Assembly: GCA_963823285.1 (NCBI GenBank)
Contig: CAWGKX010000006.1
Span: forward strand, 87,648-151,647
Origin: an uncultured Bacteroidales bacterium
Lineage (GTDB): Bacteria > Bacteroidota > Bacteroidia > Bacteroidales > JAGOPY01
Direction of reading: 5' to 3'
DNA length: 64,000 nt
Below the pieces are notes generated by a model. That model was not told the DNA's origin. It made no database searches and saw only the letters and a program-made list of their open reading frames with translations. The number at the start of each line of letters is the position of its first letter. The stretch's first letter is position 1. Of the stretch, positions 11,738-45,426 are shown one piece after another. The translations under genes were made by a program, and so were the position numbers.

Positions 11738-12464
11738 ATGATACTCAGGACCGAAAAAATCATCAAGAAATACAGGCAGAGGATTGTTGTCAATAATGTT
11801 ACCGTTGATGTAAAGCAGGGCGAAATTGTCGGCCTGCTGGGTCCAAACGGCGCCGGCAAAACAACTTCGTTTTATATCATTGTAGGATTGATAAAGCCAT
11901 TTTCGGGAAAGGTTTTCCTGGATAATGACGAGATAACCGAAGAACCGATGTACAAGAGGGCACAGCGTGGAATAGGCTATCTTGCCCAGGAAGCTTCAGT
12001 TTTCAGGAAACTCAGCGTGGAGGATAACATCAGGGCTGTCCTCGAATTCACGAAACTTTCAAAAATCCGGACAAAAAGAAAAACTCGAATCATTGCTCGA
12101 AGAGTTTGGCCTTACACTGGTGCGCAAAAGCCTGGGGATACAATTGTCGGGAGGCGAAAGGAGACGGACCGAAATCGCCCGTTCCCTGGCAGTAAATCCA
12201 AAATTTATCCTTCTTGATGAGCCTTTTGCCGGGGTGGATCCCATTGCTGTTGAAGACATCCAGGAGATCGTATCTCACTTGAAGGATAAAAATATCGGCG
12301 TTTTGATCACCGATCATAATGTACATGAAACCCTGTCCATTACCGATCGGTCTTATCTCTTATTCGAGGGAAAAGTACTGAAGTCGGGCACATCCCAGGA
12401 GCTTGCCGATGATGAGCAGGTCAGGAAAGTCTATTTGGGAGAAAAGTTTGAGTTGAGAAGATGA
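11738..12464 (+). pseudogene. lptB: LPS export ABC transporter ATP-binding protein LptB, split by a +1 frameshift as assembled
   Basis: Two overlapping ORFs (11738..12217 and 11982..12464) together carry Walker [10 protein letters not shown], the Q-loop, the signature LSGGERRR, Walker [10 protein letters not shown] and the H-loop. Removing one A from the A5 run at 12061-12065 gives ...[23 protein letters not shown]... and a 241-aa protein, the expected LptB size. Confidence 0.9.
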
Positions 12465-20939: not shown

Positions 20940-21716
20940 CTATCCAGAGATTCTTCTCCTGTAAATGAACAATGTAACCACTGTCATCAGTCCGATGCCC
21001 AGGAACAATGACCAGTTCGAAAGTGGTATCTTATGGCCGCAATTAGTGGATACACAGATGGTGCTCACGGGTTGACCAACAGAGTTTCCGTTAAAATTAT
21101 ATTCCCAGTTGAACTGGACGACGTTTTCGGTGGTTGGGGATGAATCTTGCTGACCGGTCTGATCGACAACCGTCATAACCACTCCGTCATCACCTTGCAG
21201 GTAACCTCCTGACAGGAAATCTTCCTGCAGGTCCCAGATAATGGGTGGACAGAAATTATCCACTCCTTCCAGTGCAACTGGATCTTTTACCCGGAAACAG
21301 ATATGGAATAACTTGGTCCACGTGGTAGTGGACAAAGAGATAGTCGCAGGGCCAAACACCTGGACCTGCCCGTTGAACCATTCCAGCGGGCCGGAAAGTC
21401 CGAAGAAAGACCCGCTACCGGGAGCTTGTTGCTCAACCACGGGAGGTTCCAGAACGTTATATCCATCCTGGAAGTCACCTATTGACAGGTATTCAAGGAT
21501 ATTGCCATCATAAAAGAAGCGGACATTCATCCCAAATAGCTTCTGCCCGGGAGTATCGGAAATAAATTCGACGTCCAGGCAATAGGTTTGGGTGGGACAG
21601 TCGTAAACCGGATTGGCAAAACGAACTGTCACCACAGGTAAAGCAGGTTGAGCCGCGACTTGAAATCCAGATAAAACCAGGATAAAAAGCACAGGCAGAT
21701 AGATTTTAGTTTTCAT
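20940..21716 (-). CDS. Cohesin-like domain protein with C-terminal TM/basic sorting-signal-like tail (copy A)
   Basis: The 258-aa ORF has the signal peptide MKTKIYLPVLFILVLSGFQVAAQ. Its module contains VRFFYDGNILEYLSIG, matching the xIxYDxxxLxFxG landmark of the other cohesin-like modules in the locus. The tail is IPLSNWSLFLGIGLMTVVTLFIYRRRISG. Confidence 0.6.
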   Translation of the reverse strand: MKTKIYLPVLFILVLSGFQVAAQPALPVVTVRFANPVYDCPTQTYCLDVEFISDTPGQKLFGMNVRFFYDGNILEYLSIGDFQDGYNVLEPPVVEQQAPGSGSFFGLSGPLEWFNGQVQVFGPATISLSTTTWTKLFHICFRVKDPVALEGVDNFCPPIIWDLQEDFLSGGYLQGDDGVVMTVVDQTGQQDSSPTTENVVQFNWEYNFNGNSVGQPVSTICVSTNCGHKIPLSNWSLFLGIGLMTVVTLFIYRRRISG

Positions 21717-23118
21717 AATATGCTTGTTTTATAATGATACAATAACATGACATTCTTTTGCAGGATAAATCCTGTGTTGGTTTGATAAGATTAAAGAATA
21801 TATGATCTTTCATGACCGTGGGAATTTAATTTTTGGGTACTGAAGAGAATTTACCATTGTTAAACTCCCAGGTGGTGCGATCGTTATAATTGCAGTCACC
21901 GTTGAGGTTGTAATCGCCGGTGCGATAACGGCCTGTAGTGCCATTCTGACCTTCCCAGTAGGTTCTGTCATCAAAGTTGATATCAGTAACAGAACTGGCA
22001 GGGATCACCTGCTGACCATTACCGGCATACATGGCGAAGATGCCCGGGAGGATCTCCTTCTGTCCGTAGCCTAATCCGGTGATAACATCGATATAACTCT
22101 GGACATTACGGAAGTCGAAAGTGAGGGTGTCATTGGCGATAGGCACCGGATCAGCAGACATGACAATCAGGTGATTACGATGTTCGATGACCAGGTAGTA
22201 GGAACTGTCTAAATTCAGGCTGCAGCAGTCAAAACCACCATCCACAAATTCGATATGGCCGTCGTTATGCAGTAGTGCAGCTTTGCGGCATAGATTTCCA
22301 CCTTCGGGGGCACTCCTGAGGGATACCAGCACCCAATCCACCACAGTGGCAGGATAGTTAGCAGTGCCAGGATTTGGGTTTCCATGAGAATCATATCCGA
22401 AGCCTTCAGTGCCGTTATAATTCCAGGGAGCACCAGAATAAGGCTGTCCCGGAGGAGTATATACGTTACCGGAAAAGACACTAAAGTATGTTTGACCCGG
22501 CAATATCTTCAGGTTGTTGAGACTGGTGCGCATGGGCACGGTATAAGTCTGGGTACCTCCCGGATTAATCGCAGCACCGTCAAGATATACCCAGGTTTTA
22601 ACAAACAGATCGCTGATGTTGATGATCTGCTGGCATGTCGCTGGATTACCGCAATTATCCTCAATCTCGTAGGTTCGAATGATTGTATTTCCGGATGGTA
22701 CATCACTCACCCAGATAAAGGAACCCTCATCGATACCGCAATTATCCGAGGCGGAACCACCGGCAGCGACGAAGGCTGCATAGTTGGCATACGGATCGGG
22801 TGCCGTGCATATCACAGAAAGGCCAGCAGGGCAGTTCAATGTGGGAGGCTCATTATCGCTTACAGTATAGGTGTAAGTCCAGTCGGCCGTTGTGGTTCCA
22901 TCGCAGGCGGTATAGCGGTATGTCCAGACAACCTGGCCTTCGCAAATAATCGGGTTAGGCGTTGTCACAGAGCCTACCAGAACGGAGGACACTGTTCTTC
23001 CGCATGCATCAGTAATATTAGCTGGGGCACCCGGATTCACTGCATCTACAGAGCAGGATACGGTGGATAATCCGTTAGCCGGCGGGGTAAGTCCGCTGGA
23101 GTAGATAACCGTGTAGGT
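20954..23118. repeat. Segmental duplication, copy A (partner 33866..36029)
   Basis: The two copies are collinear at a constant offset of 12912/12911 bp. They differ by a handful of substitutions and one 1-bp indel in the intergenic part. The segment covers the 258-aa gene, the intergenic spacer and the 3' 1.3 kb of the giant gene. Confidence 0.9.
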
Positions 23119-26100
23119 CTTGGTCCAGTCGGCCGTGGTGGTTCCGTTACAGGCAGTATAACGGTATCTCCAGACAATAGATCCATTGCAGGTCACCGGG
23201 TTGGGTGTTTGTTCCTTACCAATTAAGGTTGCCGAGACGGTACGTCCGCAGGCATCGGTAATATTGGCAGGGGCACCCGGATCGGTTGCATTGGACGGGC
23301 AGGAAACAGTGGCGGTGGTGTTGACCGGAGGGGTCAGACTACCGGAGTAAATAACCGTGTAGGTCTTGGTCCAGTCGGCCGTGGTGGTTCCGTCACATGC
23401 GGTATAACGGTATCTCCATACGATCGATCCATTGCAGTCCACCGGATCAGGTGATTGTTCTTTGCCAATTAAGGTTGCCGAGACGGTACGTCCGCAGGCA
23501 TCGGTAATGTTTTCCGGAGCCCCCGGATCGGTTGCATTGGACGGGCAGGAAACAGTGGCGGTGGTGTTAACCGGAGGGGTCAGACTACCGGAGTAAATAA
23601 CCGTGTAGGTCTTGGTCCAGTCGGCCGTAGTGGTTCCATCACAGGCGGTATAACGGTATCTCCAGACGATAGATCCGTTGCATGTCACCGGGTTGGGTGT
23701 TTGTTCCTTACCAATTAAGGTTGCCGAGACGGTACGTCCGCAGGCATCGGTAATGTTGGCAGGAGCGCCCGGGTCGGTTGCATTGGACGGGCAGGAAACA
23801 GTGGCAGTGGCGTTAACCGGAGGGGTTAGTCCGCCAGAGTAAATCACCGTGTAGGTCTTGGTCCAGTCGGCGGTGGTGGTTCCGTCACATGCGGTATAAC
23901 GGTATCTCCAGACGATCGATCCATTGCATGTCACCGGGTTGGGAGTTTGTTCCTCGCCGACTAAGGTTGCCGGGCCGGTAAGTCCGCAGGCATCGGTAAT
24001 GTTGGCAGGAGCGCCCGGGTCGGTTGCATCAGCCGGGCAGGAAACAGTGGCGGTGGCGTTAGCCGGAGGGGTAAGTCCGCCGGAGTAAATCACCGTGTAG
24101 GTCTTGGTCCAGTCGGCCGTAGTGGTTCCATCACAGGCGGTGTAACGGTATCTCCATACGATCGATCCGTTGCAGGTCACCGGGTTGGGTGTTTGTTCCT
24201 CGCCGACTAAGGTTGCCGAGACAGTGCGTCCGCAGGCATCGGTAATGTTGGCAGGCGCCCCTGGATCGGTTGCATTGGACGGGCAGGAAACAGTGGCGGT
24301 AGTGTTAACCGGAGGGGTAAGTCCGCCGGAGTAGATCACCGTGTAGGTCTTGGTCCAGTCGGCCGTTGTGGTTCCGTCACAGGCGGTATAACGGTATCTC
24401 CATACGATCGATCCGTTGCAGGTCACCGGGTTGGGTGTTTGTTCCTCGCCGACTAAGGTTGCCGAGACAGTGCGTCCGCAGGCATCGGTAATGTTGGCAG
24501 GCGCCCCTGGATCGGTTGCATTGGACGGGCAGGAAACAGTGGCAGTGGCGTTAGCCGGAGGGGTCAGGCCGCCAGAGTAGATCACCGTGTAGGTCTTGGT
24601 CCAGTCGGCCGTTGTGGTTCCATCACAGGCGGTATAACGGTATCTCCAGACGATCGATCCGTTGCAGGTCACCGGGTTGGGTGTTTGTTCTTCGCCAACT
24701 AAGGTTGCCGAGACAGTGCGTCCGCAGGCATCGGTAATGTTGGCAGGCACCCCAGGGTCGGTTGCATTGGACGGGCAGGAAACAGTGGCAGTGGCGTTAG
24801 CCGGAGGGGTCAGTCCGCCGGAGTAGATCACCGTGTAGGTCTTGGTCCAGTCGGCCGTTGTGGTTCCGTCACAGGCGGTATAACGGTATCTCCATACGAT
24901 CGATCCATTGCAGGTCACAGGGTTGGGTGTTTGTTCCTCACCGACTAAGGTTGCCGAAACGGTACGTCCGCAGGCATCGGTAATGTTGGCAGGAGCGCCC
25001 GGGTCGGTTGCATTGGACGGGCAGGAAACAGTGGCGGTGGTGTTAGCCGGAGGGATCAAGCCGCCGGAGTAAATAACCGTGTAGGTCTTGGTCCAGTCGG
25101 CCGTTGTGGTTCCATCACAGGCGGTATAACGGTATCTCCAGACGATCGATCCATTGCAGTCCACCGGGTTGGGTGTTTGTTCTTTCCCGACTAAGGTTGC
25201 CGGGACGGTACGTCCGCAGGCATCGGTAATATTGGCAGGAGCACCCGGATCGGATGCATTGGACGGGCAGGAAACAGTGGCGGTGGTGTTAACAGGAGGA
25301 GTAAGTCCGCCGGAGTAAATAACCGTGTAGGTCTTGGTCCAGTCGGCCGTTGTGGTTCCGTCACAGGCGGTATAACGGTATCTCCAGACAATAGATCCAT
25401 TGCAGGTCACCGGGTTGGGTGTTTGTTCCTTGCCAATTAAGGTTGCCGGGACGGTACGTCCGCAGGCATCGGTAATATTGGCAGGAGCGCCCGGGTCGGT
25501 TGCATTGGACGGGCAGGAAACAGTGGCGGTGGTGTTAGCCGGAGGGGTCAGGCCGCCGGAGTAGATAACCGTGTAGGTCTTGGTCCAGTCGGCCGTTGTG
25601 GTTCCATCACAGGCGGTATAACGGTATCTCCATAGGATCGATCCGTTGCATGTCACCGGATCAGGTGTTTGTTCCTCACCGACTAAGATTGCCGAGACGG
25701 TACGTCCGCAGGCATCGGTAATGTTTTCCGGAGTCCCCGGATCGATTGCATTGGACGGGCAGGAAACAGTGGCGGTGGCGTTAACCGGAGGGGTCAGTCC
25801 GCCGGAGTAAATAACCGTGTAGGTCTTAGTCCAGTCGGCCGTTGTGGTTCCATCACAGGCGGTATAACGGTATCTCCATACGATAGATCCATTGCAGTCC
25901 ACTGGGTTGGGTGTTTGTTCCTTACCAATTAAGGTTGCCGAGACGGTACGTCCGCAGGCATCGGTAATGTTGCCAGGAGCGCCCGGGTCGGTTGCATTGG
26001 ACGGGCAGGAAACAGTGGCGGTGGTGTTAGCCGGAGGGGTCAGTCCGCCGGAGTAGATAACCGTGTAGGTCTTGGTCCAGTCGGCCGTTGTGGTTCCATC

Positions 26101-29100
26101 ACAGGCGGTATAACGGTATCTCCATACGATCGATCCATTGCAGGTCACCGGGTTGGGAGTTTGTTCCTCACCGACTAAGATTGCCGAGACGGTACGTCCG
26201 CAGGCATCGGTAATGTTGCCAGGAGCGCCCGGGTCGGTTGCATTGGACGGGCAGGAAACAGTGGCGGTGGTGTTAACCGGCGGGGTCAGTCCGCCGGAGT
26301 ATATAACCGTGTAGGTCTTGGTCCAGTCGGCGGTGGTGGTTCCATCACAGGCGGTATAACGGTATCTCCATACGATCGATCCATTGCAGTCCACCGGATC
26401 AGGTGATTGTTCCTTACCGACTAAGGTGGCAGAGACGGTACGTCCGCAGGCATCAGTAATGTTTTCCGGAGCGCCCGGATCGGTTGCATTGGACGGGCAG
26501 GAAACAGTGGCGGTTGTGTTAACCGGAGGGGTCAGTCCGCCGGAGTAAATAACCGTGTAGGTCTTGGTCCAGTCGGCCGTGGTGATTTCGTCACAGGCGG
26601 TATAACGGTATCTCCATAGGATCGATCCGTTGCATGTCACCGGATCAGGTGTTTGTTCCTCACCGACTAAGGTTGCCGAGACAGTGCGTCCGCAGGCATC
26701 GGTAATGTTTTCCGGAGCGCCCGGATCGATTGCATTGGACGGGCAGGAAACAGTGGCGGTGGTGTTAACCGGCGGGGTAAGTCCGCCGGAGTAAATAACC
26801 GTGTAGGTCTTGGTCCAGTCGGCCGTTGTGGTTCCATCACAGGCGGTATAACGGTATCTCCATACGATAGATCCATTGCAGTCCACCGGATCAGGTGTTT
26901 GTTCCTCACCGACTAAGGTTGCCGAGACAGTGCGTCCGCAGGCATCGGTAATGTTTTCCGGAGTCCCCGGATCGGTTGCATTGGACGGGCAGGAAACAGT
27001 GGCGGTTGTGTTAACCGGAGGTGTCAGTCCGCCGGAGTAAATCACCGTGTAGGTCTTGGTCCAGTCGGCCGTTGTGATTTCGTCACAGGCGGTATAACGG
27101 TATCTCCAGACGATCAATCCATTGCAGTCCACCGGGTTGGGTGTTTGTTCTTTCCCGACTAAGGTTGCCGAGACGGTACGTCCGCAGGCATCGGTAATGT
27201 TGCCAGGAGCGCCCGGGTCGGTTGCATTGGACGGGCAGGAAACAGTGGCGGTGGTGTTAACCGGCGGGGTCAGTCCGCCGGAGTAAATAACCGTGTAGGT
27301 CTTGGTCCAGTCGGCCGTTGTGGTTCCATCACAGGCGGTATAACGGTATCTCCATACGATCAATCCATTGCAGTCCACCGGGTTGGGTGTTTGTTCCTTG
27401 CCAATTAAGGTTGCCGAGACGGTACGTCCGCAGGCATCGGTAATGTTGGCAGGAGCGCCCGGGTCGGTTGCATTGGACGGGCAGGAAACAGTGGCGGTGG
27501 TGTTAACCGGAGGGGTCAGTCCGCCGGAGTAAATAACCGTGTAGGTCTTGGTCCAGTCGGCCGTTGTGATTTCGTCACAGGCGGTATAACGGTATCTCCA
27601 GACGATCGATCCATTGCAGTCCACCGGGTTGGGTGTTTGTTCTTTCCCGACTAAGGTTGCCGAGACGGTACGTCCGCAGGCATCGGTAATGTTGCCAGGA
27701 GCGCCCGGGTCGGTTGCATTGGACGGGCAGGAAACAGTGGCGGTGGTGTTAACCGGAGGTGTCAGTCCGCCGGAGTAAATAACCGTGTAGGTCTTGGTCC
27801 AGTCGGCCGTTGTGATTTCGTCACAGGCGGTATAACGGTATCTCCAGACGATCGATCCATTGCAGTCCACCGGGTTGGGTGTTTGTTCTTTCCCGACTAA
27901 GGTTGCCGAGACGGTACGTCCGCAGGCATCGGTAATGTTGCCAGGAGCGCCCGGGTCGGTTGCATTGGACGGGCAGGAAACAGTGGCGGTGGTGTTAACC
28001 GGAGGTGTCAGTCCGCCGGAGTAAATAACCGTGTAGGTCTTGGTCCAGTCGGCCGTTGTGATTTCGTCACAGGCGGTATAACGGTATCTCCATACGATCG
28101 ATCCATTGCAGTCCACCGGATCAGGTGATTGTTCCTTACCGACTAAGGTGGCAGAGACGGTACGTCCGCAGGCATCAGTAATGTTTTCCGGAGCGCCCGG
28201 ATCGGTTGCATTGGACGGGCAGGAAACAGTGGCGGTTGTGTTAACCGGAGGTGTCAGTCCGCCGAAGTAAATCACCGTGTAGGTCTTGGTCCAGTCGGCC
28301 GTTGTGATTTCGTCACAGGCGGTATAACGGTATCTCCATACGATCGATCCGTTGCAGTTTACCGGATCAGGTGTTTGTTCCTTGCCAACTAAGGTTGCCG
28401 AGACGGTACGTCCGCAGGCATCGGTAATATTGGCAGGGGCACCCGGATCGGTTGCATTGGACGGGCAGGAAACAGTGGCGGTGGTGTTAACCGGAGGGGT
28501 CAGTCCGCCGGAGTAGATAACCGTGTAGGTCTTCGTCCAGTCGGCCGTGGTGATTCCATCACAGGCGGTATAACGGTATCTCCAGACGATCGATCCATTG
28601 CAGTCCACCGGATCAGGTGATTGTTCCTTACCGACTAAGGTGGCAGAGACGGTACGTCCGCAGGCATCGGTAATATTGGCAGGAGCACCCGGATCGGTTG
28701 CATTGGACGGGCAGGAAACAGTGGCGGTGGTGTTAACCGGAGGGGTCAGTCCGCCGGAGTAGATAACCGTGTAGGTCTTCGTCCAGTCGGCCGTGGTGAT
28801 TCCATCACAGGCGGTATAACGGTATCTCCAGACGATCGATTCATTGCAGTTCACCGGGTTGGGAGTTTGTTCCTTGCCGACTAAGGCTGCCGAGACGGTA
28901 CGTCCGCAGGCATCGGTAATGTTGGCAGGAGCACCCGGATCGGTTGCATTGGACGGGCAGGAAACAGTGGCGGTGGTGTTAACCGGAGGGGTCAGTCCGC
29001 CGGAGTATGTAATGGTATAGGTATAAGTCCATACAAATTCTAGGTTGGCACAATCCTTATAAGTGTAAATCCAGGTATAGGTTCCATTGCAGCCGGCATA

Positions 29101-32100
29101 GCTTCCGCCATTTGTTGGAGTCGGGACAGAAAGGATATTGCCGCATATATCTTTGACCACAGGCAGGGTAATAGGTGCTGTGGCATTGGCCAGACACTGA
29201 ACGGTACCGCCATTGGTTGAAACCGGTCCGCCGGACTCGGCAGGTGGAGTGGTATGAGTGAGGTTGAAAACCTGTGTGCATGTGTTGGGATTACTGCAGG
29301 AATCCGTTACCTGGTAAGTCCGCGTGACAGTTAATGCACATGTCCCTTCGACTGTCTGTCCTAAATAACTAAAGGTATAGATATCACCACAATTATCAGT
29401 GGCTGTTCCACCTGCAGCGCGAAATGCTCCTATGTTTGCATAAGGAGCTGGTAAGTCTGCAACGCACTGATAGCTTGAACTGCCGGGAGGACAGGTAATC
29501 GAAGGAGCTATTGAATCCTTCACCGTAATCGTCTGTGAGCAATCTGCGTGATTTCCGCTTTGGTCAGTGGCTCGGTAAGTTCGCGTAATAGTGAATTTAT
29601 TTGGGCACGTCTTATTTGTGATAACGTCTCCCTGCCATGTAATAAGAATATCAGCAGGTAGGGTACAATCGTCAGTCGCGGTCACAGAAGAAGTATTTTC
29701 CGGAGGTACTGCTGAAGCACAGGCAACAGTCAAATTCGCCGGGCATGTAATATTTGGCGCAGAGTTAGGTGGCAGCGTACTGAATGAAATATCATCTAAG
29801 CCAAAATCATTTCCTCCCGCAATGGTTTGAAGATCAACGATTCTTATTACTGCAGAAGTGTTGCTGCCTGAATTCCAAACAGAATAGAATCTATTCCAGA
29901 CGAAAGGTCCTGCAGTTGTGGTGGCTCCTGGAGGCAATTGAAAAGGATATCCCAGCAGAATGCCATTTATACTGAATTGCAAAAATGCGTACGTATTATT
30001 TGCCTGGTTTAAACTCATTGCCCAGGCGTTAAAATAGTAATTGGTGTTTGGTGTGACCGTAATATTCTCTTGCCATACTGTTATACCGGGAGAGACATTG
30101 CCATTTATAGCCATATAAAGGCCAGTGCCCGGGTTTGTGTGATCAGTACCGAAAAAATTGGTATGTTGTGCATTAGAATTAGGTGTAACTGCATAAAGTC
30201 CTTCAGGCACCAGATCTGCCGGAGCATAAATATATGCAGATGTAAAACCTGTATTTCCCGCCGTAAAGTTTCCATTCGTGACAAGTTCACCGCCAACATT
30301 AACGTCTTGTGTATTTGAGCATCCGCCCGCAGTTGTGACGGTAACAGTATAAATACCTGCCTGATGCGCAATAATGGATTGTGTGGTCTCTCCTGTATTC
30401 CATAAGTAAGAGGCAAATGCGGGATCGACCGTCAATTGAATATCGACATTTTGTATACAATTATTTGAATTTATTGTAAACGAGGGCGCTGTACCTCCCG
30501 ACACTGTCACAGTCACTGTTCCGCAGGCTGAATTCAGGTTACATGGACTGCCGGATTCATAGCGGCCCCAATATTGTGTAGTACCAGCTGGTGTTACTTT
30601 TAAATTATCTCCTGTCCCAACGAGAGTACCGCCGCAACTTCCGGTATACCATTTAATCGTTTGTGCGCCTCCTCCTGCGCCTCCGCCACCCCCGGTCAAA
30701 GAAAGAATAGAAAAGCCCCCGGTACAGATCGAAGCAGGACTGGCAGCAGCCGTTGGAGCGCCAATTGCAGCGCATGCTGCACCGATAGCAAAATCACCGA
30801 AACCGGATAGTCCTGTAGCTGTTGTAGATGTTGCAAGTGGGTTAGTTGTTGTTGGTGAAGTCCAGGCGGAAGAAAAGAATCTTTTAACTAAAAAGTTCGC
30901 AGTGATGTTCTTAGCTGAGGGATCTATATCAACCGGAGTTACCCAGCCAATAAAAGTAAATGTAGCAGTGTATGTTCCTATTGCAAGAGCGCCTCCTGCA
31001 GTTAAAGTCCAGTAACGGTTAACATCATTGGCAGGATCAATGCCTGAAGTATTAATATTAGGATGTTCAGTTTTAGTGTTTTTGGCTGTTAAAGTTCCGG
31101 CAACTGTTACATTTAGTGCCGTAATGGCGATAGGAGTGTAGCTAAGCGAATCTCCAATGTAAAACGTCTTGGATTGGCCGGCTCCGGTCCCTAATGTCCA
31201 CTCTAAATTTCCATAAACATACAAGCCGGCTCCTGCTCCAACCACACTTGCAGCTGTGCCAAGAGTCAGTTTATTTGCTCCTGTCGTGATTTTTCCGCTT
31301 GTGAAGGTGAGTATACCTGTAACAGTTGCATTCACCCCATTTAGCTTAACTCCCCCGGTATTATCGATGGTTAAATTAGTAAATGTCGTCGCACTTGAAC
31401 CGCTTATAGTCTGTGCTCCTCCATTGAAAACTATAGTACCTGTGTTTGCGGTAAATGTGCCATTGTTTGTCCAGTCACCGACTAAACTAAGTGTATTTAT
31501 CGAACCAAGCAATATCCCGCCTGTGTTTATAGTAAGCTTACTCGCTGTTGAAGCAGCATTGACGGTTATTGTATGCCCGCTGAGAATGGTAATGGAAATG
31601 GCGGCATTGGTAGGTACAACGGACGAAGTCACCCATATGACATTATCGGTTGAGATTTCCCAAGTATTTGCAGTGTTCCAGTTACCTGTGATCCTTGAAC
31701 GAAAATAATTGGCAAAAGGTTCACCGATCTGGAAATCACTGAAACTCGTAAGCCCCGTAGCTTGTGTAGTCGTCGCCGTTCTTGTCCCGGTAGTTGTTGA
31801 GTTCCATACGGAAGAAGCGAACCTTTGAATGATGAAGTTCGCAGTATTAGCTCCGGCATCCAGATCACCGGGGTTAATAAAAGTAAACGTGGCGTTATAA
31901 TTCGATAAAACAAGCCCTCCACCGGAGGCTAATGTCCAGTAACGATTAACTGATCTTATTGGTGCAATGTTGGAGCTGCCAATGTTCGGATGATCGCCGG
32001 CAGTTGTGCGCGCCATTGTAGTTCCGGGAGTGGTCACACTATTGAAAGTAATGGAAACCGGTGTATAAGCCGTCTCATCACCGATTGCAAAATTTTTGGT

Positions 32101-33465
32101 TGTTGTACCTGCTGGAATTGTCCATTCTAAATTTCCAATTACCCATCCTGTACCTCCACCGACAACAGTTGCCGATGAACCAAGCGTTAACTTAAAGAAT
32201 GGACCTGAAGTTATATTCCCACTGGTGAATGTAAGCGTGCCGTTCACAATTTCGCCAAATGAATCTACCAATGAGACCCCGGTGGCATTGTTGACTATCA
32301 AATTATTAAAGGCTGTCACTGTGAGGCCTGTAATAAACTGCTGAGCAGTACCATTGAAAGTCACCGTTCCGGTCCCGGCTGTGAAAGTCCCGTCATTTCC
32401 AAAATCACCGCCCAGGGTCAGATTAAAATTACCCGTATTTAAACTCCCGTTGACTATTTCGAGATTGACTGCGGCATTAAATGTTTTTGCCCCATTTAGC
32501 GTGATAACACCGGTATTTGTAATGATCACCCCACCGGTTGCCGCAAAAGGTGTTATCCATTCCAGCCCTGCCGTACGCGAACTGGCTGTATTGTATTGCA
32601 AAGTTGCTGCCGCGCCGTAAGTCGGTGCTACAGAAGCAGTAGCAGTTCCTTCCATGGAGAGGATACCTCCCACAGTCACTCCGGTTGTAGTTTTTATATT
32701 CGAACCGGGACCACCGGAAAGTGTTAGATTAGTATACGTTGATGGTTTGACAGTTTGTGCCCCGGTTCTGCTATAATTGACCGTTGCCCCGGTTCCGTTG
32801 AAAGTTGTTGTAAATACTCCGCTGTTCCCGGTCGTTCCGAATGGCGTTGCACCACCAAGCACTAAGTTGGGATTGAAATTTCCTAAAGTCAAAGTTGCTA
32901 TACAAGCTGCATTGCTCGCTGTAACGGGTGTAATTGTCCCGTTTACAGTTACCATTCCGCTATTTTCTATGAACGAGGAATTATCTGAAAATGTGCCGGA
33001 TCTGCTGCTTGTAATGGTCAAATTGCCTGTAATAGTAAAATTCAGGATAGTTGAGGTCATTATAGTTGTTCTGGTACCCGTCGGTGTAACAGCAGTGCCA
33101 ACATTTGCTGATGCACAGGCTAATGTCCCGGCACCTTCTATTAAACAAGCAGTATTTCCTCCTGCTGCACTGTTTAAAGTCACGGCATTTGTAACTGTAA
33201 CCGTGATTCCGCTGTTAATATTTAGAGTTGCAATAGCCCCGTTAAAAGTAATTGAGAGACAGGTAGTAGTCACATCGCCTGTCAGGGTAATTCCGTTCGG
33301 AATTACCACATCATCGCCTGAACCGGGAACACCGGTTGGTGTCCAGGTACTTCCGGTATTCCAGTTTCCTGTAAATGCAGTTTTAGTAATTGCATGCGTC
33401 AATGAAACTGTAAATAATAAAATTAGTACAGTCAGTGCTGCTTTTAACAAAGAACTCGTCTTCAT
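21826..33465 (-). CDS. Giant secreted adhesin-like protein (about 3879 aa): beta-helix-like head, CBM-like domain, HYR-like Cys domains, 25 x 82-aa repeats, conserved C-terminal module with dockerin-like end
   Basis: One uninterrupted ORF runs 21826..33549. I prefer Met29 (ATG at 33463-33465), which gives the signal peptide MKTSSLLKAALTVLILLFTVSLTHA. No T9SS C-terminal domain is recognisable at the C-terminus (...GDYNLNGDCNYNDRTTWEFNNGKFSSVPKN). Confidence 0.9.
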   Translation of the reverse strand: MKTSSLLKAALTVLILLFTVSLTHAITKTAFTGNWNTGSTWTPTGVPGSGDDVVIPNGITLTGDVTTTCLSITFNGAIATLNINSGITVTVTNAVTLNSAAGGNTACLIEGAGTLACASANVGTAVTPTGTRTTIMTSTILNFTITGNLTITSSRSGTFSDNSSFIENSGMVTVNGTITPVTASNAACIATLTLGNFNPNLVLGGATPFGTTGNSGVFTTTFNGTGATVNYSRTGAQTVKPSTYTNLTLSGGPGSNIKTTTGVTVGGILSMEGTATASVAPTYGAAATLQYNTASSRTAGLEWITPFAATGGVIITNTGVITLNGAKTFNAAVNLEIVNGSLNTGNFNLTLGGDFGNDGTFTAGTGTVTFNGTAQQFITGLTVTAFNNLIVNNATGVSLVDSFGEIVNGTLTFTSGNITSGPFFKLTLGSSATVVGGGTGWVIGNLEWTIPAGTTTKNFAIGDETAYTPVSITFNSVTTPGTTMARTTAGDHPNIGSSNIAPIRSVNRYWTLASGGGLVLSNYNATFTFINPGDLDAGANTANFIIQRFASSVWNSTTTGTRTATTTQATGLTSFSDFQIGEPFANYFRSRITGNWNTANTWEISTDNVIWVTSSVVPTNAAISITILSGHTITVNAASTASKLTINTGGILLGSINTLSLVGDWTNNGTFTANTGTIVFNGGAQTISGSSATTFTNLTIDNTGGVKLNGVNATVTGILTFTSGKITTGANKLTLGTAASVVGAGAGLYVYGNLEWTLGTGAGQSKTFYIGDSLSYTPIAITALNVTVAGTLTAKNTKTEHPNINTSGIDPANDVNRYWTLTAGGALAIGTYTATFTFIGWVTPVDIDPSAKNITANFLVKRFFSSAWTSPTTTNPLATSTTATGLSGFGDFAIGAACAAIGAPTAAASPASICTGGFSILSLTGGGGGAGGGAQTIKWYTGSCGGTLVGTGDNLKVTPAGTTQYWGRYESGSPCNLNSACGTVTVTVSGGTAPSFTINSNNCIQNVDIQLTVDPAFASYLWNTGETTQSIIAHQAGIYTVTVTTAGGCSNTQDVNVGGELVTNGNFTAGNTGFTSAYIYAPADLVPEGLYAVTPNSNAQHTNFFGTDHTNPGTGLYMAINGNVSPGITVWQENITVTPNTNYYFNAWAMSLNQANNTYAFLQFSINGILLGYPFQLPPGATTTAGPFVWNRFYSVWNSGSNTSAVIRIVDLQTIAGGNDFGLDDISFSTLPPNSAPNITCPANLTVACASAVPPENTSSVTATDDCTLPADILITWQGDVITNKTCPNKFTITRTYRATDQSGNHADCSQTITVKDSIAPSITCPPGSSSYQCVADLPAPYANIGAFRAAGGTATDNCGDIYTFSYLGQTVEGTCALTVTRTYQVTDSCSNPNTCTQVFNLTHTTPPAESGGPVSTNGGTVQCLANATAPITLPVVKDICGNILSVPTPTNGGSYAGCNGTYTWIYTYKDCANLEFVWTYTYTITYSGGLTPPVNTTATVSCPSNATDPGAPANITDACGRTVSAALVGKEQTPNPVNCNESIVWRYRYTACDGITTADWTKTYTVIYSGGLTPPVNTTATVSCPSNATDPGAPANITDACGRTVSATLVGKEQSPDPVDCNGSIVWRYRYTACDGITTADWTKTYTVIYSGGLTPPVNTTATVSCPSNATDPGAPANITDACGRTVSATLVGKEQTPDPVNCNGSIVWRYRYTACDEITTADWTKTYTVIYFGGLTPPVNTTATVSCPSNATDPGAPENITDACGRTVSATLVGKEQSPDPVDCNGSIVWRYRYTACDEITTADWTKTYTVIYSGGLTPPVNTTATVSCPSNATDPGAPGNITDACGRTVSATLVGKEQTPNPVDCNGSIVWRYRYTACDEITTADWTKTYTVIYSGGLTPPVNTTATVSCPSNATDPGAPGNITDACGRTVSATLVGKEQTPNPVDCNGSIVWRYRYTACDEITTADWTKTYTVIYSGGLTPPVNTTATVSCPSNATDPGAPANITDACGRTVSATLIGKEQTPNPVDCNGLIVWRYRYTACDGTTTADWTKTYTVIYSGGLTPPVNTTATVSCPSNATDPGAPGNITDACGRTVSATLVGKEQTPNPVDCNGLIVWRYRYTACDEITTADWTKTYTVIYSGGLTPPVNTTATVSCPSNATDPGTPENITDACGRTVSATLVGEEQTPDPVDCNGSIVWRYRYTACDGTTTADWTKTYTVIYSGGLTPPVNTTATVSCPSNAIDPGAPENITDACGRTVSATLVGEEQTPDPVTCNGSILWRYRYTACDEITTADWTKTYTVIYSGGLTPPVNTTATVSCPSNATDPGAPENITDACGRTVSATLVGKEQSPDPVDCNGSIVWRYRYTACDGTTTADWTKTYTVIYSGGLTPPVNTTATVSCPSNATDPGAPGNITDACGRTVSAILVGEEQTPNPVTCNGSIVWRYRYTACDGTTTADWTKTYTVIYSGGLTPPANTTATVSCPSNATDPGAPGNITDACGRTVSATLIGKEQTPNPVDCNGSIVWRYRYTACDGTTTADWTKTYTVIYSGGLTPPVNATATVSCPSNAIDPGTPENITDACGRTVSAILVGEEQTPDPVTCNGSILWRYRYTACDGTTTADWTKTYTVIYSGGLTPPANTTATVSCPSNATDPGAPANITDACGRTVPATLIGKEQTPNPVTCNGSIVWRYRYTACDGTTTADWTKTYTVIYSGGLTPPVNTTATVSCPSNASDPGAPANITDACGRTVPATLVGKEQTPNPVDCNGSIVWRYRYTACDGTTTADWTKTYTVIYSGGLIPPANTTATVSCPSNATDPGAPANITDACGRTVSATLVGEEQTPNPVTCNGSIVWRYRYTACDGTTTADWTKTYTVIYSGGLTPPANATATVSCPSNATDPGVPANITDACGRTVSATLVGEEQTPNPVTCNGSIVWRYRYTACDGTTTADWTKTYTVIYSGGLTPPANATATVSCPSNATDPGAPANITDACGRTVSATLVGEEQTPNPVTCNGSIVWRYRYTACDGTTTADWTKTYTVIYSGGLTPPVNTTATVSCPSNATDPGAPANITDACGRTVSATLVGEEQTPNPVTCNGSIVWRYRYTACDGTTTADWTKTYTVIYSGGLTPPANATATVSCPADATDPGAPANITDACGLTGPATLVGEEQTPNPVTCNGSIVWRYRYTACDGTTTADWTKTYTVIYSGGLTPPVNATATVSCPSNATDPGAPANITDACGRTVSATLIGKEQTPNPVTCNGSIVWRYRYTACDGTTTADWTKTYTVIYSGSLTPPVNTTATVSCPSNATDPGAPENITDACGRTVSATLIGKEQSPDPVDCNGSIVWRYRYTACDGTTTADWTKTYTVIYSGSLTPPVNTTATVSCPSNATDPGAPANITDACGRTVSATLIGKEQTPNPVTCNGSIVWRYRYTACNGTTTADWTKTYTVIYSSGLTPPANGLSTVSCSVDAVNPGAPANITDACGRTVSSVLVGSVTTPNPIICEGQVVWTYRYTACDGTTTADWTYTYTVSDNEPPTLNCPAGLSVICTAPDPYANYAAFVAAGGSASDNCGIDEGSFIWVSDVPSGNTIIRTYEIEDNCGNPATCQQIINISDLFVKTWVYLDGAAINPGGTQTYTVPMRTSLNNLKILPGQTYFSVFSGNVYTPPGQPYSGAPWNYNGTEGFGYDSHGNPNPGTANYPATVVDWVLVSLRSAPEGGNLCRKAALLHNDGHIEFVDGGFDCCSLNLDSSYYLVIEHRNHLIVMSADPVPIANDTLTFDFRNVQSYIDVITGLGYGQKEILPGIFAMYAGNGQQVIPASSVTDINFDDRTYWEGQNGTTGRYRTGDYNLNGDCNYNDRTTWEFNNGKFSSVPKN
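22873..29022 (-). repeat. Coding tandem array: 25 units of 246 bp (82 aa)
   Basis: The landmark ggagta[ag]ataaccgtgtaggtcttggtccagtcggc recurs at 23098, 23344, 23590 ... 29002, and (29002-23098)/246 = 24. Translation gives 24 near-identical units of the form TYTVIYSGGLTPPVNTTATVSCPSNATDPGAPANITDACGRTVSATLVGKEQTPNPVTCNGSIVWRYRYTACDGTTTADWTK, plus one divergent C-terminal unit. Confidence 0.95.
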
Positions 33466-33785
33466 AAAAATAAATCTTTTGGTATTTTTTTCAATGGCTC
33501 TTGTTTTGACGCTGCCATCAACCTGGGGAAAAGAGTAAATATTTTTCATGATTTTCTTTTTGGATTTAATACTTGGATCTTTTTTTATTGCAGGGGGGAA
33601 AATTCATTGAAACTATTAATTACGGGGGTGATAATGAATCACTGATTGAAGCTTCAAAATGGACATAATGATTCAAAAACCAGTAAGTGCTGAAAATCAT
33701 AATATTAGATAAAAAAAATTGTAATTATAAATTGGTTAATGACTTAGACTAAGGAAAGGTACAAAATATTTTAATACACAGCACA

Positions 33786-33851: not shown

Positions 33852-34628
33852 TTATGAACTCATCCTTCTCCTGTAAATGAACAATGTAACCACTGTCATC
33901 AGTCCGAGGCCCAGGAACAATGACCAGTTCGAAAGTGGTATCTTATGGCCGCAATTAGTGGACACACAGATGGTGCTCACGGGTTGACCAACAGAGTTTC
34001 CGTTAAAATTATATTCCCAGTTGAACTGGACGACGTTTTCGGTGGTTGGGGATGAATCTTGCTGACCGGTCTGATCGACAACCGTCATAACCACTCCGTC
34101 ATCACCTTGCAGGTAACCTCCTGACAGGAAATCTTCCTGCAGGTCCCAGATAATGGGTGGACAGAAATTATCCACTCCTTCCAGTGCAACTGGATCTTTT
34201 ACCCGGAAACAGATATGGAATAACTTGGTCCACGTGGTAGTGGACAAAGAGATAGTCGCAGGGCCAAACACCTGGACCTGCCCGTTGAACCATTCCAGCG
34301 GGCCGGAAAGGCCGAAGAAAGACCCGCTACCGGGAGCTTGTTGCTCAACCACGGGAGGTTCCAGAACGTTATATCCATCCTGGAAGTCACCTATTGACAG
34401 GTATTCAAGGATATTACCATCATAAAAGAAGCGGGCATTCATCCCAAATAGCTTCTGCCCGGGAGTATCGGAAATAAATTCGACGTCCAGGCAATAGGTT
34501 TGGGTGGGACAGTCGTAAACCGGGTTGGCAAAACGAACTGTCACCACAGGTAAAGCAGGTTGAGCCGCGACTTGAAATCCTGATAAAACCAGGATAAAAA
34601 GCACAGGCAGATAGATTTTAGTTTTCAT
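33852..34628 (-). CDS. Cohesin-like domain protein with C-terminal TM/basic tail (copy B)
   Basis: The 258-aa ORF differs from copy A at only a few residues: V65A, LGIGL to LGLGL, and the C-terminus RRRMSS versus RRRISG. Confidence 0.6.
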   Translation of the reverse strand: MKTKIYLPVLFILVLSGFQVAAQPALPVVTVRFANPVYDCPTQTYCLDVEFISDTPGQKLFGMNARFFYDGNILEYLSIGDFQDGYNVLEPPVVEQQAPGSGSFFGLSGPLEWFNGQVQVFGPATISLSTTTWTKLFHICFRVKDPVALEGVDNFCPPIIWDLQEDFLSGGYLQGDDGVVMTVVDQTGQQDSSPTTENVVQFNWEYNFNGNSVGQPVSTICVSTNCGHKIPLSNWSLFLGLGLMTVVTLFIYRRRMSS

Positions 34629-36029
34629 AATATGCTTATTTTATAATGATACAATAAATTGACATTCTTTGCAGGATAAATCCTGTGTTGGTTTGATAAG
34701 ATTAAAGAATATATGATCTTTCATGACCGTGGGAATTTAATTTTTGGGTACTGAAGAGAATTTACCATTGTTAAACTCCCAGGTGGTGCGGTCGTTATAA
34801 TTGCAGTCGCCGTTGAGGTTGTAATCGCCGGTGCGATAACGGCCTGTAGTGCCATTCTGACCTTCCCAGTAGGTTCTGTCATCAAAGTTGATATCAATAA
34901 CAGAACTGGCAGGGATCACCTGCTGACCATTACCGGCATACATGGCGAAGATGCCCGGGAGGATCTCCTTCTGTCCGTAGCCTAATCCGGTGATAACATC
35001 GATATAACTCTGGACATTACGGAAGTCGAAAGTGAGGGTGTCATTGGCGATAGGCACCGGATCAGCAGACATGACAATCAGGTGATTACGATGTTCGATG
35101 ACCAGGTAGTAGGAACTGTCGAAATTCAGGCTGCAGCAATCAAAACCACCATCCACAAATTCCACATGGCCGTCGTTATGCAGTAGTGCAGCTTTGCGGC
35201 ATAGATTTCCGCCTTCCGGGGCACTCCTGAGGGATACCAGCACCCAATCCACCACAGTGGCAGGATAGTTAGCAGTGCCAGGATTTGGGTTTCCATGAGA
35301 ATCATATCCGACGCCTTCAGTGCCGTTATAATTCCAGGGAGCACCAGAATAAGGCTGTCCCGGAGGAGTATATACGTTACCGGAAAAGACACTAAAGTAT
35401 GTTTGACCCGGCAATATCTTCAGGTTGTTGAGACTGGTGCGCATGGGCACGGTATAAGTCTGGGTACCTCCCGGATTAATCGCAGCACCGTCAAGATATA
35501 CCCAGGTTTTAACAAACAGATCGCTGATGGTGATGATCTGCTGGCATGTCACAGGATTACCGCAATTATCCTCAATCTCGTAGGTTCGTATGATTGTATT
35601 TCCGGATGGTACATCACTCACCCAGATAAAGGAACCCTCATCGATACCGCAATTATCCGAGGCGGAACCACCGGCAGCGACGAAGGCTGCATAGTTGGCA
35701 TACGGATCAGGGGCCGTGCATATCACAGAAAGGCTATCAGGGCAGTTCAATGTAGGAGGCTCATTATCGCTTACAGTATAGGTGTAAGTCCAGTCGGCCG
35801 TTGTGGTTCCATCGCAGGCGGTATAGCGGTATGTCCAGACAACCTGGCCTTCGCAAATAATCGGGTTAGGCGTTATCTGAGAGCCTACCAGAACTGGGGA
35901 CGCTGTTCTTCCGCATGCATCAGTAATATTAGCTGGGGCACCCGGATTCACTGCATCTACAGAGCAGGATACGGTGGATAATCCGTTAGCCGGCGGGGTA
36001 AGTCCGCTGGAGTAGATAACCGTGTAGGT
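33866..36029. repeat. Segmental duplication, copy B (partner 20954..23118)
   Basis: See copy A. Confidence 0.9.
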
Positions 36030-39000
36030 CTTGGTCCAGTCGGCCGTGGTGGTTCCGTTACAGGCTGTATAACGGTACCTCCAGACAATTGATCCGTTGC
36101 ATGTCACCGGGTTGGGAGTTTGTTCCTTGCCAATTAAGGTTGCCGAGACGGTACGTCCGCAGGCATCGGTAATGTTGGCAGGAGCGCCCGGATCGGTTGC
36201 ATTGGACGGGCAGGAAACAGTGGCGGTGGTGTTAGCCGGCGGGGTCAGTCCGCCGGAGTAGATAACCGTGTAGGTCTTGGTCCAGTCGGCCGTTGTGGTT
36301 CCGTTACAGGCGGTATAACGGTATCTCCATACGATCGATCCATTGCAGGTCACCGGGTTCGGTGTTTGTTCTTTACCAATTAAGGTTGCCGAGACGGTAC
36401 GTCCGCAGGCATCGGTAATGTTGGCAGGAGCGCCCGGATCGGTTGCATTGGACGGGCAGGAAACAGTGGCGGTGGTGTTAACAGGAGGAGTAAGTCCGCC
36501 GGAGTAAATAACCGTGTAGGTCTTGGTCCAGTCGGCCGTTGTGGTTCCGTTACAGGCAGTATAACGGTATCTCCAGACGATAGATCCGTTACAGGTCACC
36601 GGGTTGGGTGTTTGTTCCTTGCCGACTAAGGTTGCCGAGACGGTACGTCCGCAGGCATCGGTAATGTTGGCAGGAGCGCCCGGATCGGTTGCATTGGACG
36701 GGCAGGAAACAGTGGCGGTGGTGTTGACCGGAGGTGTAAGTCCACCAGAGTAGATAACCGTGTAGGTCTTGGTCCAGTCGGCCGTTGTGGTTCCGTCACA
36801 GGAAGTATAACGGTATCTCCAGACAATCGATCCGTTGCATGTCACCGGGTTGGGTGTTTGTTCCTTGCCAATTAAGGTTGCCGAGACGGTACGTCCGCAG
36901 GCATCGGTAATGTTGGCAGGAGCGCCCGGGTCGGTTGCATTGGACGGGCAGGAAACAGTGGCGGTAGCGTTAGCCGGCGGGGTCAATGCGCCGGAGTAAA
37001 TAACCGTGTAGGTGTAAGTCCAGACATACTCGAGGTTGGCACAATCCTTATACGTGTAGGTATATGTTCTGGAACCACTGCAGGTCAGTGGGTCCGGACT
37101 ATCAACGATCACTGGTGTAGGAGCCGGGAGAATATTTCCGCAAACATCTTTGACCACGGGAAGTGCCGGTGCAGCCGTCAGGCACTCAACGGTGCTGGAA
37201 GTTGCAACTGGTCCGCCAAACTGAGTTGGAGCCGTAGTATGCATAATTGTAATTGTCTGAGTACAGGTTTGCTGGTGAAGGCAAGTATCCTTTATTCCAT
37301 AAGTACGGGTTATGACTTCAGGACATGTATTACCGTCTGAATCGTCACTTATCCAGGCAAATGAGGATATCAGGATGCCGCTTAAATCATCCGATGCTGA
37401 ACCACCGGCAGCGACAAAGGCAGCATAGTCCGGATAAACATCTGGAACTGTGCATTGGGCCGTTAGTGGGCCAGGGCAGTTCATAACTGGTGGCGCATTG
37501 TCAGGGTAGAAAGTTTCTCCTTTAACAGAACTATATCCACATTCATTTTGTGCCCTGACTCTAACATTAAATGAAGTGACATTGTTGGGAACTGATAATA
37601 TGATTTTTCTGAGGAATTGGCCGGTTCCGCTCTGCTGCGTTCCAAGAACAACCGGGCTGTCCCATTCCCAAAAATAATTTTGCGCACCGAGTACTACTGA
37701 AGCTTCAATAAGGACATCTGTGTTCCCGGATATTAAACTGTCCGGAAAACAGATTCCATTGGGCATTGTTATATCCGCCGGCGGATCGGGAGGAAGAGTC
37801 GTGGTTTGAAATAGGGGAGAAGTCCAGATATTAGTTCCACAAGCATTTACTGTGGTTATTGATACGGTAATAGGTGTGCTTCCTATGAATAACCGGACAA
37901 ATCTTGTTCCCTGGCCTGAAATTATTTGCCAGCCGTCCGAAACTACCCAATTATATGAAATGGCCCCCTGTACATCATTCACGCTGAAGTCAGCAATCGA
38001 ACCGATGCAGGCAGGGTTAGGACCTGTAATTTCAATTGGTGGACCCGGAGGGCCAATAGAGTACAGTATAAATTTATCAGAATTTATGATTACATCACAA
38101 TCAACAGTTGAAATTTTAACAAGAGTAATAGTTGTACTATCGGTAATAGGTATGGTTTTGGTATCCGAAATATTTGGGCTGTTCACAATTTGCGACTGCT
38201 CAGTCCCTCCGTTAATCTTGTAATAATAAGTCCAGGGAAAAATATTCCCCAGGTAATTAACTGTAAATGTAATGTTGACAGGTGTATGTTCTGGAGTGCC
38301 GCAAACATCGGGCGTTACCGTGAGCGATCCGGTTGGAAGGACTATCGAATTGCCGTTAAAACTATCAGATGCAACATAGCAGTTTGTATTATTTAAATTT
38401 TCTTCACTGGCAGCAGAAACTAACCTGAAAATTTTATTTCCTATCGAACCAATAGCAAGATCTATATAAGCATTAGCAAAATCAGGTATAGGGCTTCCTA
38501 TATTCACCCAGTTTGATGTGTTAATATCGGCTTCCTGCCACTGAAAAACATAAGGAATATCAGGAGGGATGCTCCCGGAAGTAATCGTGCCTTGAAGCCT
38601 GATTAGTCCGGTTGTGCAATAATCAGTGGAAATTCTCTCATACCCGATCGTAAACGGAATAAATGGCCGGAATGTGATATCATCAATAGCTAAGTCGTTG
38701 CCACACCCGCCATCTCCATTATTTCTTAATATGATAAATATGCTATCCTGATTTTGAGGCACGATGAAGATTATAGAAGTTGAATTCCAGGTTAGAGTTG
38801 TTGTTGCATTTACAACACCTGTATTAGTTTGCGCGAGTAATTTAGCGCCGTTACATGCAGTCCCGCCAACTGGTAAAAGAGAATTGGCTTCATCATCACC
38901 CGGGTTTTTATCCCATATTTCATAACGGATATTAATTGGAAGACCGCTGCCTCCGCATGCGGTCGGCTTAAGTACATTAGCATAATATGATTTGTATTCA

Positions 39001-43041: not shown

Positions 43042-43109
43042 AGCTTTTTTATTTATAATTATATTGATTAATTCGAATATCTGTTAAAGGTAATATTATT
43101 TTTTAATGC

Positions 43110-45380: not shown

Positions 45381-45426
45381 ATCATTAAATTTTAATTATT
45401 TGCATATATCATTAGTTTATATTATA

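Follow-up and report, generated by a model that had tools for sequence, protein, structure and literature searches.

A 25-unit array of HYR_4C domains as the probable stalk of a giant secreted protein in an uncultured Bacteroidales bacterium

The window analysed here is a stretch of 64,000 nucleotides (positions 87,648 to 151,647 of contig CAWGKX010000006.1, assembly GCA_963823285.1) from an uncultured member of the Bacteroidales, a host that is probably anaerobic. Our subject is gene 1 (21826..33549), which encodes a giant secreted protein containing a long array of tandem repeats. It is an intact open reading frame (ORF) that measures 3907 aa when counted from the first ATG. Translation probably starts at Met29 (33465), where a signal-peptide-like sequence, MKTSSLLKAALTVLILLFTVSLTHA, begins as read from the sequence, giving a protein of 3879 aa. 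The protein ends in a 264-aa C-terminal module, which we call CTD-X (21829..22620), and directly downstream of the gene lies a small gene, p258 (copy A, 20940..21716), the product of which is a candidate partner or anchor of CTD-X. The same arrangement is found a second time nearby: gene 2 (34737..39890), a paralogue with a 1717-aa ORF, is directly followed by a second copy of p258 (copy B, 33852..34628), 98% identical to the first. Both giant genes, all their modules and both copies of p258 lie on the minus strand.

The array occupies 22873..29022 (6,150 bp), or the central 2,050 residues, aa 1510-3559, of the protein. The motif TYT[VI][IT]Y occurs in it 25 times, at a spacing of exactly 82 aa, and Tandem Repeats Finder reports a repeat at 23074..29007 with a period of 246, 24.1 copies, 92% matches, 0% indels and a score of 9502, which is far above chance level. 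A first-pass annotation, made from the sequence alone, had described 25 head-to-tail units of 82 aa (246 bp) in a 3879-aa protein, 24 of them in exact register and followed by a divergent terminal one, with four conserved cysteines each, and all of this is confirmed in the assembled sequence. Units A01-A24 (23119..29022) are 24 HYR_4C domains in exact 246-bp register, and unit A25 (22873..23118) is the divergent terminal one, with 70% aa and 66-71% nucleotide identity to the other units and 97% nucleotide identity to its counterpart B05 in gene 2. There is not a single indel or stop codon in the array, and cysteines stand at unit positions 22, 39, 59 and 72 in 25 of 25 units.

Calling the units near-identical, as the first-pass annotation did, was nevertheless generous. 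The protein identity among A01-A24 ranges from 81.7 to 100%, with a mean of 91.8%, and the DNA identity from about 85 to 100%, mostly about 90-92% (mean about 91%). A05 and A06 form the sole identical pair, and the 24 unit proteins comprise 23 distinct sequences. Nor is the variation limited to the few positions listed at first: it affects 27 aa positions (17 of them recurrently, with 55 of 82 positions invariant) and 80 nucleotide columns, of which 48 are at codon position 3. Each of the units A01-A25 contains three to four N-x-S/T motifs (NTT, NAT, NIT), and no Bacteroidetes-type O-glycosylation motif, D(S/T)(A/I/L/V/M/T), was seen by eye in the unit consensus.

The unit belongs to Pfam family PF23237, HYR_4C ('HYR-like domain with 4 cysteines'). 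Set against a gathering threshold of 27 bits, the gene 1 protein scores 1233.2 bits over 28 stretches, namely the 25 units and three flanking domains, which supports the earlier view that the units are HYR-like and akin to the cysteine-containing domains beside them. A query of two units scores 105.6 bits, and the gene 2 protein 320.9 bits over seven stretches. The four cysteines are invariant or nearly so across the alignment of homologues. The family is rare, since a set of 1.84 billion representative proteins contains only 354 with a match to the unit (E ≤ 1e-3), and its name was not found in the literature searched. A sequence search of the PDB with the unit detected no solved structure. 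A hidden Markov model (HMM) built from the 24 units found no match in 80 related loci: the HYR domains of those relatives are canonical ones and do not belong to HYR_4C.

Three consecutive units were modelled with AlphaFold2 (AF2) on the basis of a 23-row alignment. The model (mean predicted local distance difference test score, pLDDT, 94.2; predicted template modelling score, pTM, 0.73) consists of separate all-beta domains, with four main beta strands per unit and a coil of 8-11 residues (YSGGLTPP) between units. Units unable to fold as independent domains had been named at the outset as an observation that would speak against a stalk; the three separate beta domains predicted here support independent folding. 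Both the Pfam boundaries and the AF2 model place the start of the structural domain about 10 residues past the unit start of the first-pass annotation, and TYTVIY forms the final strand of the domain before it. When the three-unit model was compared with the PDB using Foldseek, the matches were tandem cadherin, protocadherin and other Ig-like arrays, with weak E-values and with low global template modelling (TM) scores, as expected because the query holds three domains.

The remainder of the gene 1 protein is made of other modules. The signal peptide is followed by an N-terminal region of beta-strand repeats (together about 900 aa, 30766..33465), a candidate distal head, which belongs to no Pfam family. 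It has 416 homologues, several of which are named 'beta strand repeat-containing protein' and many of which carry type A tails of the T9SS (type IX secretion system) or G8 domains. An Ig_7 domain (CHU_C-associated, Ig-like; 30502..30759, Pfam PF19081, E 3.1e-7) comes next, then a stretch with no assigned domain, then three divergent HYR/HYR_4C domains directly upstream of the array (29023..29757). The latter match HYR_4C in three stretches (E 3.1e-24), and HYR weakly (E 0.055-0.065, 14 bits for a cutoff of 21.7). Between the array and CTD-X lies a further HYR-like domain (22621..22872), for which the Pfam HYR/HYR_4C match is weak (E 0.03) and the cysteine pattern is visible. The Pfam content of gene 1 is therefore HYR_4C, weak HYR and Ig_7; a score for Bac_rhamnosid_C is driven by the repeats and has no individually significant stretch. 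NCBIfam has no match in either giant protein, and an exact-sequence look-up found neither the gene 1 protein nor p258 on record.

The question arises as to how the units of the array are kept similar. Among A01-A24, the mean pairwise non-synonymous divergence (dN) is 0.043 and the synonymous divergence (dS) 0.264, giving a dN/dS of 0.16: purifying selection acts on the units, and they are not young. As a yardstick, the tail unit, which was duplicated recently, has a dS of 0.016 between A25 and B05, and it follows that the units are old, not freshly homogenised. They have also recombined. Of the biallelic informative sites, 946 pairs were compared, and 463 pairs (49%) contain all four gametes; by the Hudson-Kaplan minimum (Rm), the 246 bp have seen at least 15 recombination events. 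Neighbouring units resemble each other more closely than units in random order (92.7% as against 91.3% +/- 0.36), a value reached by none of 5000 permutations, and unit identity falls slowly with distance along the array. A test of incompatibility against distance, similar to the pairwise homoplasy index (PHI), is only marginal (p = 0.045), since incompatibility has almost reached saturation between neighbouring sites already. The first-pass annotation had noted a mosaic variation between units, which these figures bear out, and had ascribed it to ongoing unequal crossover or gene conversion rather than to old divergence; the recombination stands (Rm of at least 15), but the second part does not, given the mean dS of 0.264 and the dN/dS of 0.16. 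It is mainly purifying selection that has kept these old units similar, and recombination that has shuffled them. As a mechanism, we propose that the array may alter by duplication and deletion of units and by gene conversion between them, while purifying selection would keep each unit foldable.

The substitution spectrum of the units has nothing unusual about it: 50 transitions and 30 transversions are spread over all four bases. We rejected a diversity-generating retroelement: A is the major base in only 14 of the 80 variable columns, all bases change, and the changes are mostly synonymous. We also rejected a recent horizontal origin of the unit from other array-bearing genomes, with which blastn finds DNA similarity over one 57-bp stretch only.

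The base composition changes along the gene. The GC content of the array is 0.571, and its GC content at third codon positions (GC3) is 0.61, whereas the gene's N-terminal part has a GC3 of 0.36. A similar GC3 step is found in the paralogue (0.366 to 0.607), and the other genes of the window have values of 0.43-0.52. Further HYR_4C arrays likewise have a higher GC content than their flanks, chiefly via codon position 2, that is, through their amino-acid composition. The GC3 step possibly stems from GC-biased gene conversion, from a foreign origin of the unit or from codon selection; in a recombining array, GC-biased gene conversion is an attractive explanation and a candidate cause.

Such an array is difficult to assemble. 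Only 31% of its 31-mers are unique, as compared with 92% of its 151-mers, and its longest exact repeat is 332 bp. In a word-indexed search, 37 of 37 homologues of the two-unit query were fragments of at most 290 aa, and the CTD-X homologues among the matches listed were all pieces of 170-460 aa. Contigs break at this place as well. Among the three nearest relatives in species-representative genomes, two contigs start no more than about 420 bp upstream of CTD-X and one starts inside the gene, and the 17 nearest contigs of the metagenome collection have at most about 1.2 kb of sequence upstream of CTD-X. The warning of the first-pass annotation that the array is an assembly hazard was therefore justified, since relatives' contigs break at the array and the homologues of the unit are fragmentary. 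A scan of metagenomes for contigs of the same species spanning the array gave a best match of only 62-66% identity. A contig from another sample (L084; Joint Genome Institute (JGI) sample 3300050030, 6504 bp) is collinear with the window from 35294 to 28754 at 94.4% identity, starting inside the duplicated tail and ending 268 bp into the array; it is independent confirmation both of the locus and of the junction into the array.

Elsewhere in the window, lptB (~12055..12080, plus strand) contains one frameshift beside A-runs, and murF (54883..55126, minus strand) two frame switches; the 11.7-kb giant ORF, unlike these two genes, is intact. The homopolymer frameshifts in lptB and murF are consistent with an assembly from noisy long reads, which agrees with the long-read origin that the first-pass annotation drew from the array itself and saw as fitting the insertion-type frameshifts elsewhere in the window.

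Could the copy number, the mosaic phasing or both be an artefact of assembly or polishing, the true array being shorter, longer or more homogeneous? The indel-type frameshifts found at homopolymers, one in lptB and two in murF, lend some weight to this idea, as do the small share of unique 31-mers (31%) and the exact repeat of 332 bp, which allow reads to be misplaced between units. We nevertheless consider it quite unlikely. The 6,150 bp are free of indels and stop codons, and the bias towards codon position 3, the dN/dS of 0.16 and the normal mixture of transitions and transversions are the marks of real evolution, not of errors. In addition, 23 of the 24 units are distinct and offer anchors for long reads, the contig from the other sample confirms the junction at 94-95% identity, and comparable arrays exist in other genomes. 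The alleles of the array, biased towards synonymous changes and without indels or stops over 6.15 kb, look real.

Gene 2 differs from gene 1 in its N-terminal region, which contains PKD_6, and ends in the same tail. It contains an array of the same repeat, absent from the first-pass annotation, with five HYR_4C units (B01-B05, 35784..37013). The duplicated block at 20940..23124 extends over p258, CTD-X, the HYR-like domain and, as its final element, the divergent last unit (A25 in gene 1, B05 in gene 2), and its two copies show an identity of about 98.5%. Exactly at the entry of the array, the identity between the two genes falls to about 92%, which is the generic level between units, and B01-B04 have their best matches elsewhere than at the corresponding positions of gene 1. 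This step fits either of two scenarios: a reshuffling of the arrays after the duplication, or a recent tract of conversion that covered the tail only.

The C-terminal module, which may hold the protein in place, is of particular interest. Pfam and NCBIfam have no family for CTD-X, neither in the gene 1 protein nor in 61 homologues, and a sequence search of the PDB with it returned nothing meaningful. Homologues are numerous: 248 at E ≤ 1e-10, and 190 loci in species-representative genomes, mostly of Saprospiraceae, Bacteroidales, Lewinellaceae and Runella. In these relatives, CTD-X comes after stalk-type domains of many kinds (HYR_4C, HYR, Big_9, cadherin-like, DUF7507, SdrD_B and PKD). The AF2 model of the module (pLDDT 95.2, pTM 0.92) was compared with the PDB by Foldseek, and ranks 1-8 were all chains of the X-module and type II dockerin of Clostridium thermocellum CipA, with a probability of 1.00, E-values of 1.7e-4 to 1.3e-3 and about 170 aligned columns; on the three 156-residue chains that contain only the X-module and dockerin, the TM-score is 0.50-0.57. 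The module ends in DYNLNGDCNYND and then a helix, which corresponds to a canonical calcium-binding loop of the dockerin/EF-hand type, the key residues being invariant or nearly so. CTD-X is thus predicted, from its modelled structure, to fold as an X-module followed by the two F-hand helices of a type II dockerin-like pair.

p258 is a protein of 258 aa, composed of a signal peptide, a domain of about 200 aa and a C-terminal IPLSNW motif followed by a transmembrane helix and a YRRR tail. Homologues of it are found directly downstream of CTD-X in at least 15 of the retrieved loci, those of the nearer relatives (L001-L013, L020 and L084), in Bacteroidales, Saprospiraceae, Lewinellaceae and Haliscomenobacter, and it is solely this conserved adjacency that suggests that p258 may bind CTD-X. 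Between the window and L084, p258 is the fastest-diverging gene of the locus (79% protein identity, for flanks at 94-99% DNA identity). It has no Pfam, NCBIfam or PDB match. The isolated tail scores 15.4 bits with the NCBIfam model LPXTG_anchor, below the cutoff of 15.9; the succession of IPLSNW, transmembrane helix and RRR presumably resembles a sorting signal of the IPTL-CTERM type, a likeness that no model confirmed. A weak profile match (probability 21.6%) with the N-terminus of the protein encoded at 40579..43041 gives only a hint of a possible link between the two.

The neighbourhood is rich in cohesins. A protein encoded at 43110..45380 (minus strand) contains four of them (Pfam Cohesin, E 2.6e-25, with a weak Dockerin_1 match, E 0.036) and has a C-terminus homologous to CTD-X (BLASTP E 1e-27, 32% identity). 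It belongs to a cluster of four surface proteins at 40579..52158 (minus strand), two of which match Pfam Cohesin at or above threshold and a third below it; three of the four have T9SS type A tails (Por_Secre_tail). PorP/SprF and PorU are encoded at 57290..62264. Together with this cluster, they look like a cohesin-dockerin surface network in an organism that has a T9SS.

This neighbourhood raises another possibility, which is that gene 1 encodes a mobile gliding adhesin of the SprB type, exported by the T9SS, with CTD-X as a divergent T9SS sorting domain. The presence in the window of PorP/SprF and PorU, and of several neighbours with type A tails, is compatible with it, as is the phylum, Bacteroidota, and the closest full-length proteins with HYR_4C arrays end in T9SS-type tails. 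However, searches of Pfam and NCBIfam for membership of the T9SS substrates gave no match to Por_Secre_tail/TIGR04183 or CHU_C/TIGR04131 in either giant protein, and no other T9SS C-terminal domain (CTD) model of NCBIfam matches them. With its 264 aa, CTD-X is far larger than T9SS CTDs, its model matches the X-module and dockerin and not the beta-sandwich of a CTD, and the adjacent gene is p258, which is not PorP/SprF-like. We therefore regard an SprB-type adhesin as very unlikely.

Taken as a whole, these data favour the view that the 25 HYR_4C Ig-like domains form the extended stalk of a secreted surface protein of about 3,880 aa, related in design to the fibrillar adhesins and to the Periscope Proteins, and we give this interpretation a probability of about 0.62. 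The array would act as a spacer that sets the projection distance of the head. As a general figure, an Ig-like domain is about 4 nm long. At this value, the 25 units would reach about 100 nm, and the five units of the paralogue about 20 nm. Anchoring at the cell surface is suggested by the signal peptide and by the dockerin-like module: CTD-X would hold the protein there through a predicted protein-protein contact of the dockerin type, and its partner may be p258 or one of the neighbouring cohesin proteins with a T9SS tail. The tunable length proposed in the first-pass annotation is suggested only by the five-unit paralogue and by other HYR_4C arrays of 4-17 highly similar units.

A stalk is not the only role that can be envisaged for the units. 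The array may instead be a multivalent binding surface, in which each unit binds a ligand (a polysaccharide or the surface of another cell) and the copy number tunes avidity. That 55 of 82 positions are invariant despite a synonymous divergence of 0.26 points to a constraint beyond what a spacer selected for its fold alone would strictly need; moreover, three to four N-x-S/T motifs are kept in each unit, and stalk and adhesive roles can blur in fibrillar adhesins (PMC8286594), which also speaks for binding. We hold this to be unlikely, however, for several reasons: no ligand-binding family of Pfam matches the unit, the dN/dS of 0.16 is nothing unusual in a structural domain, and separate candidate head domains exist at the N-terminus. 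In the relatives, furthermore, CTD-X follows many unrelated stalk-type Ig domains, suggesting interchangeable spacers.

Several observations nevertheless weigh against a surface stalk held by a dockerin-type contact, and concern each of its parts. As regards export and anchoring, Pfam and NCBIfam detect in gene 1 neither a T9SS CTD nor any other recognised signal for export to, or anchoring in, the outer membrane. CTD-X remains below every Pfam dockerin threshold, and none of 62 homologues has a Dockerin_1 match either. As regards the partner, p258 has no significant similarity to the cohesins of the window (hhalign probability 0.3%); Pfam Cohesin matches one of 20 p258 members, at E 0.11, and a profile search of the PDB finds nothing. 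The C-terminal transmembrane helix of p258, taken at face value, would put this protein in the inner membrane. As regards length variation, the sole close relative, L084, stops one unit into the array, and strain-level variation in copy number is unseen; polishing of a noisy long-read assembly could also have scrambled the phasing of units in part. Finally, the identity between units, about 91% at the DNA level with a dS of 0.264, is lower than in the Periscope Proteins that vary most in length, and the longest exact repeat is 332 bp.

A wider proposal can be made more tentatively: CTD-X and p258 may constitute an undescribed and widespread surface-attachment system of the Bacteroidota, in which a contact resembling that of cohesin and dockerin would replace the T9SS CTD, and in which the array would set the length of the fibril. 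We see this as possible but, on balance, doubtful. No description of the CTD-X module or of the CTD-X/p258 gene pair was found in the literature searched. The CTD-X module, predicted to be X-dockerin-like, is present in hundreds of giant proteins of the Bacteroidota, and the gene 1 protein has no detected T9SS sorting domain despite a neighbourhood rich in T9SS features and cohesins; an attachment by CTD-X and p258 would, if true, explain how a whole class of giant fibrils stays on cells. Independently of this proposal, gene 1 shows a long HYR_4C array at full length, which very few other sequences do, at a place where the public assemblies of close relatives break, and the array shows that similarity between protein units can be kept by purifying selection and shuffling, not by recent homogenisation.

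It remains to compare gene 1 with known systems. In Periscope Proteins, among them SasG, Rib, Sgo_0707 and CdrA, the number of repeats sets the projection distance, and short reads lead to faulty assemblies of the arrays (Whelan et al. 2021, PMC8201768). Like them, gene 1 has an array of highly similar folded domains, joined by short linkers that partly contain proline, and this array has a functional region on its N-terminal side and an anchor on its C-terminal side (head and anchor being predicted here). In Periscope Proteins, the DNA of the repeats is alike enough to allow recombination within the gene; gene 1 bears a recombination signature (Rm of at least 15), while its inter-unit DNA identity is lower, at about 91%, and a dS of 0.26 marks units that were not homogenised recently. 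The variation in repeat number that characterises Periscope Proteins has here, as its sole comparison, the paralogue in the same genome, with five units to the 25 of gene 1. The host differs as well, being a Gram-negative member of the Bacteroidota, and the putative anchor corresponds neither to a sortase motif nor to any anchor known from the outer membrane. The main text of the Periscope paper (PMC8201768) does not mention HYR_4C by name.

Fibrillar adhesins provide a second point of comparison. In a survey of fibrillar adhesin-like (FA-like) proteins, Bacteroidetes accounted for 16% of them (Monzon et al. 2021, PMC8286594). The gene 1 product shares with fibrillar adhesins its length and multidomain composition, its tandem Ig-like stalk domains and its distinct terminal region, its location at the surface being predicted. 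Unlike FA-like proteins, it contains none of the adhesive Pfam domains listed in that survey (PMC8286594), and HYR is absent from the main text of the same paper.

The C-terminal module is best compared with the X-module and dockerin (XDoc) of CipA (PDB 2b59, 4fl4, 3kcp, 4u3s and 5g5d). Such a pair, with a type II dockerin, anchors the cellulosome scaffold to cohesins of the cell surface. Like XDoc, CTD-X is C-terminal on a very large protein, and the resemblance extends to the predicted fold of the last ~170 residues, including the DYNLNGDCNYND segment, similar to a calcium-binding loop, and the helix that follows it. Unlike XDoc, to which it has an identity of 15-17%, CTD-X has about 90 extra N-terminal residues, a Gram-negative host and no Pfam dockerin match above threshold, and its candidate partner, p258, is not detectably a cohesin. 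Dockerin-like modules have already been reported in Bacteroidetes (PMC6487960).

The closest likenesses are with other HYR_4C arrays. Two public proteins, P0278 (3006 aa, with 17 identical 82-aa units) and P0281 (with 36 diverged units), share with gene 1 the HYR_4C family, the 82-aa period and the placement of the array inside giant multi-Ig proteins of the Bacteroidota type. They end in C-terminal domains of the T9SS type, as read from their sequences, whereas gene 1 ends in CTD-X; gene 1 has more units than P0278, and an intermediate level of identity. Other metagenome-assembled genomes (MAGs) contain arrays of 246 bp repeated about 15 times at 98-99% DNA identity (L082, 6100..9722), and of 237 bp repeated at least 15 times. 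The arrays of P0278 and L082 are far more homogenised than that of gene 1. Long HYR_4C arrays are already in public data, and the stalk is a feature of a well-known kind; it is the pairing of CTD-X with p258 that may be new.

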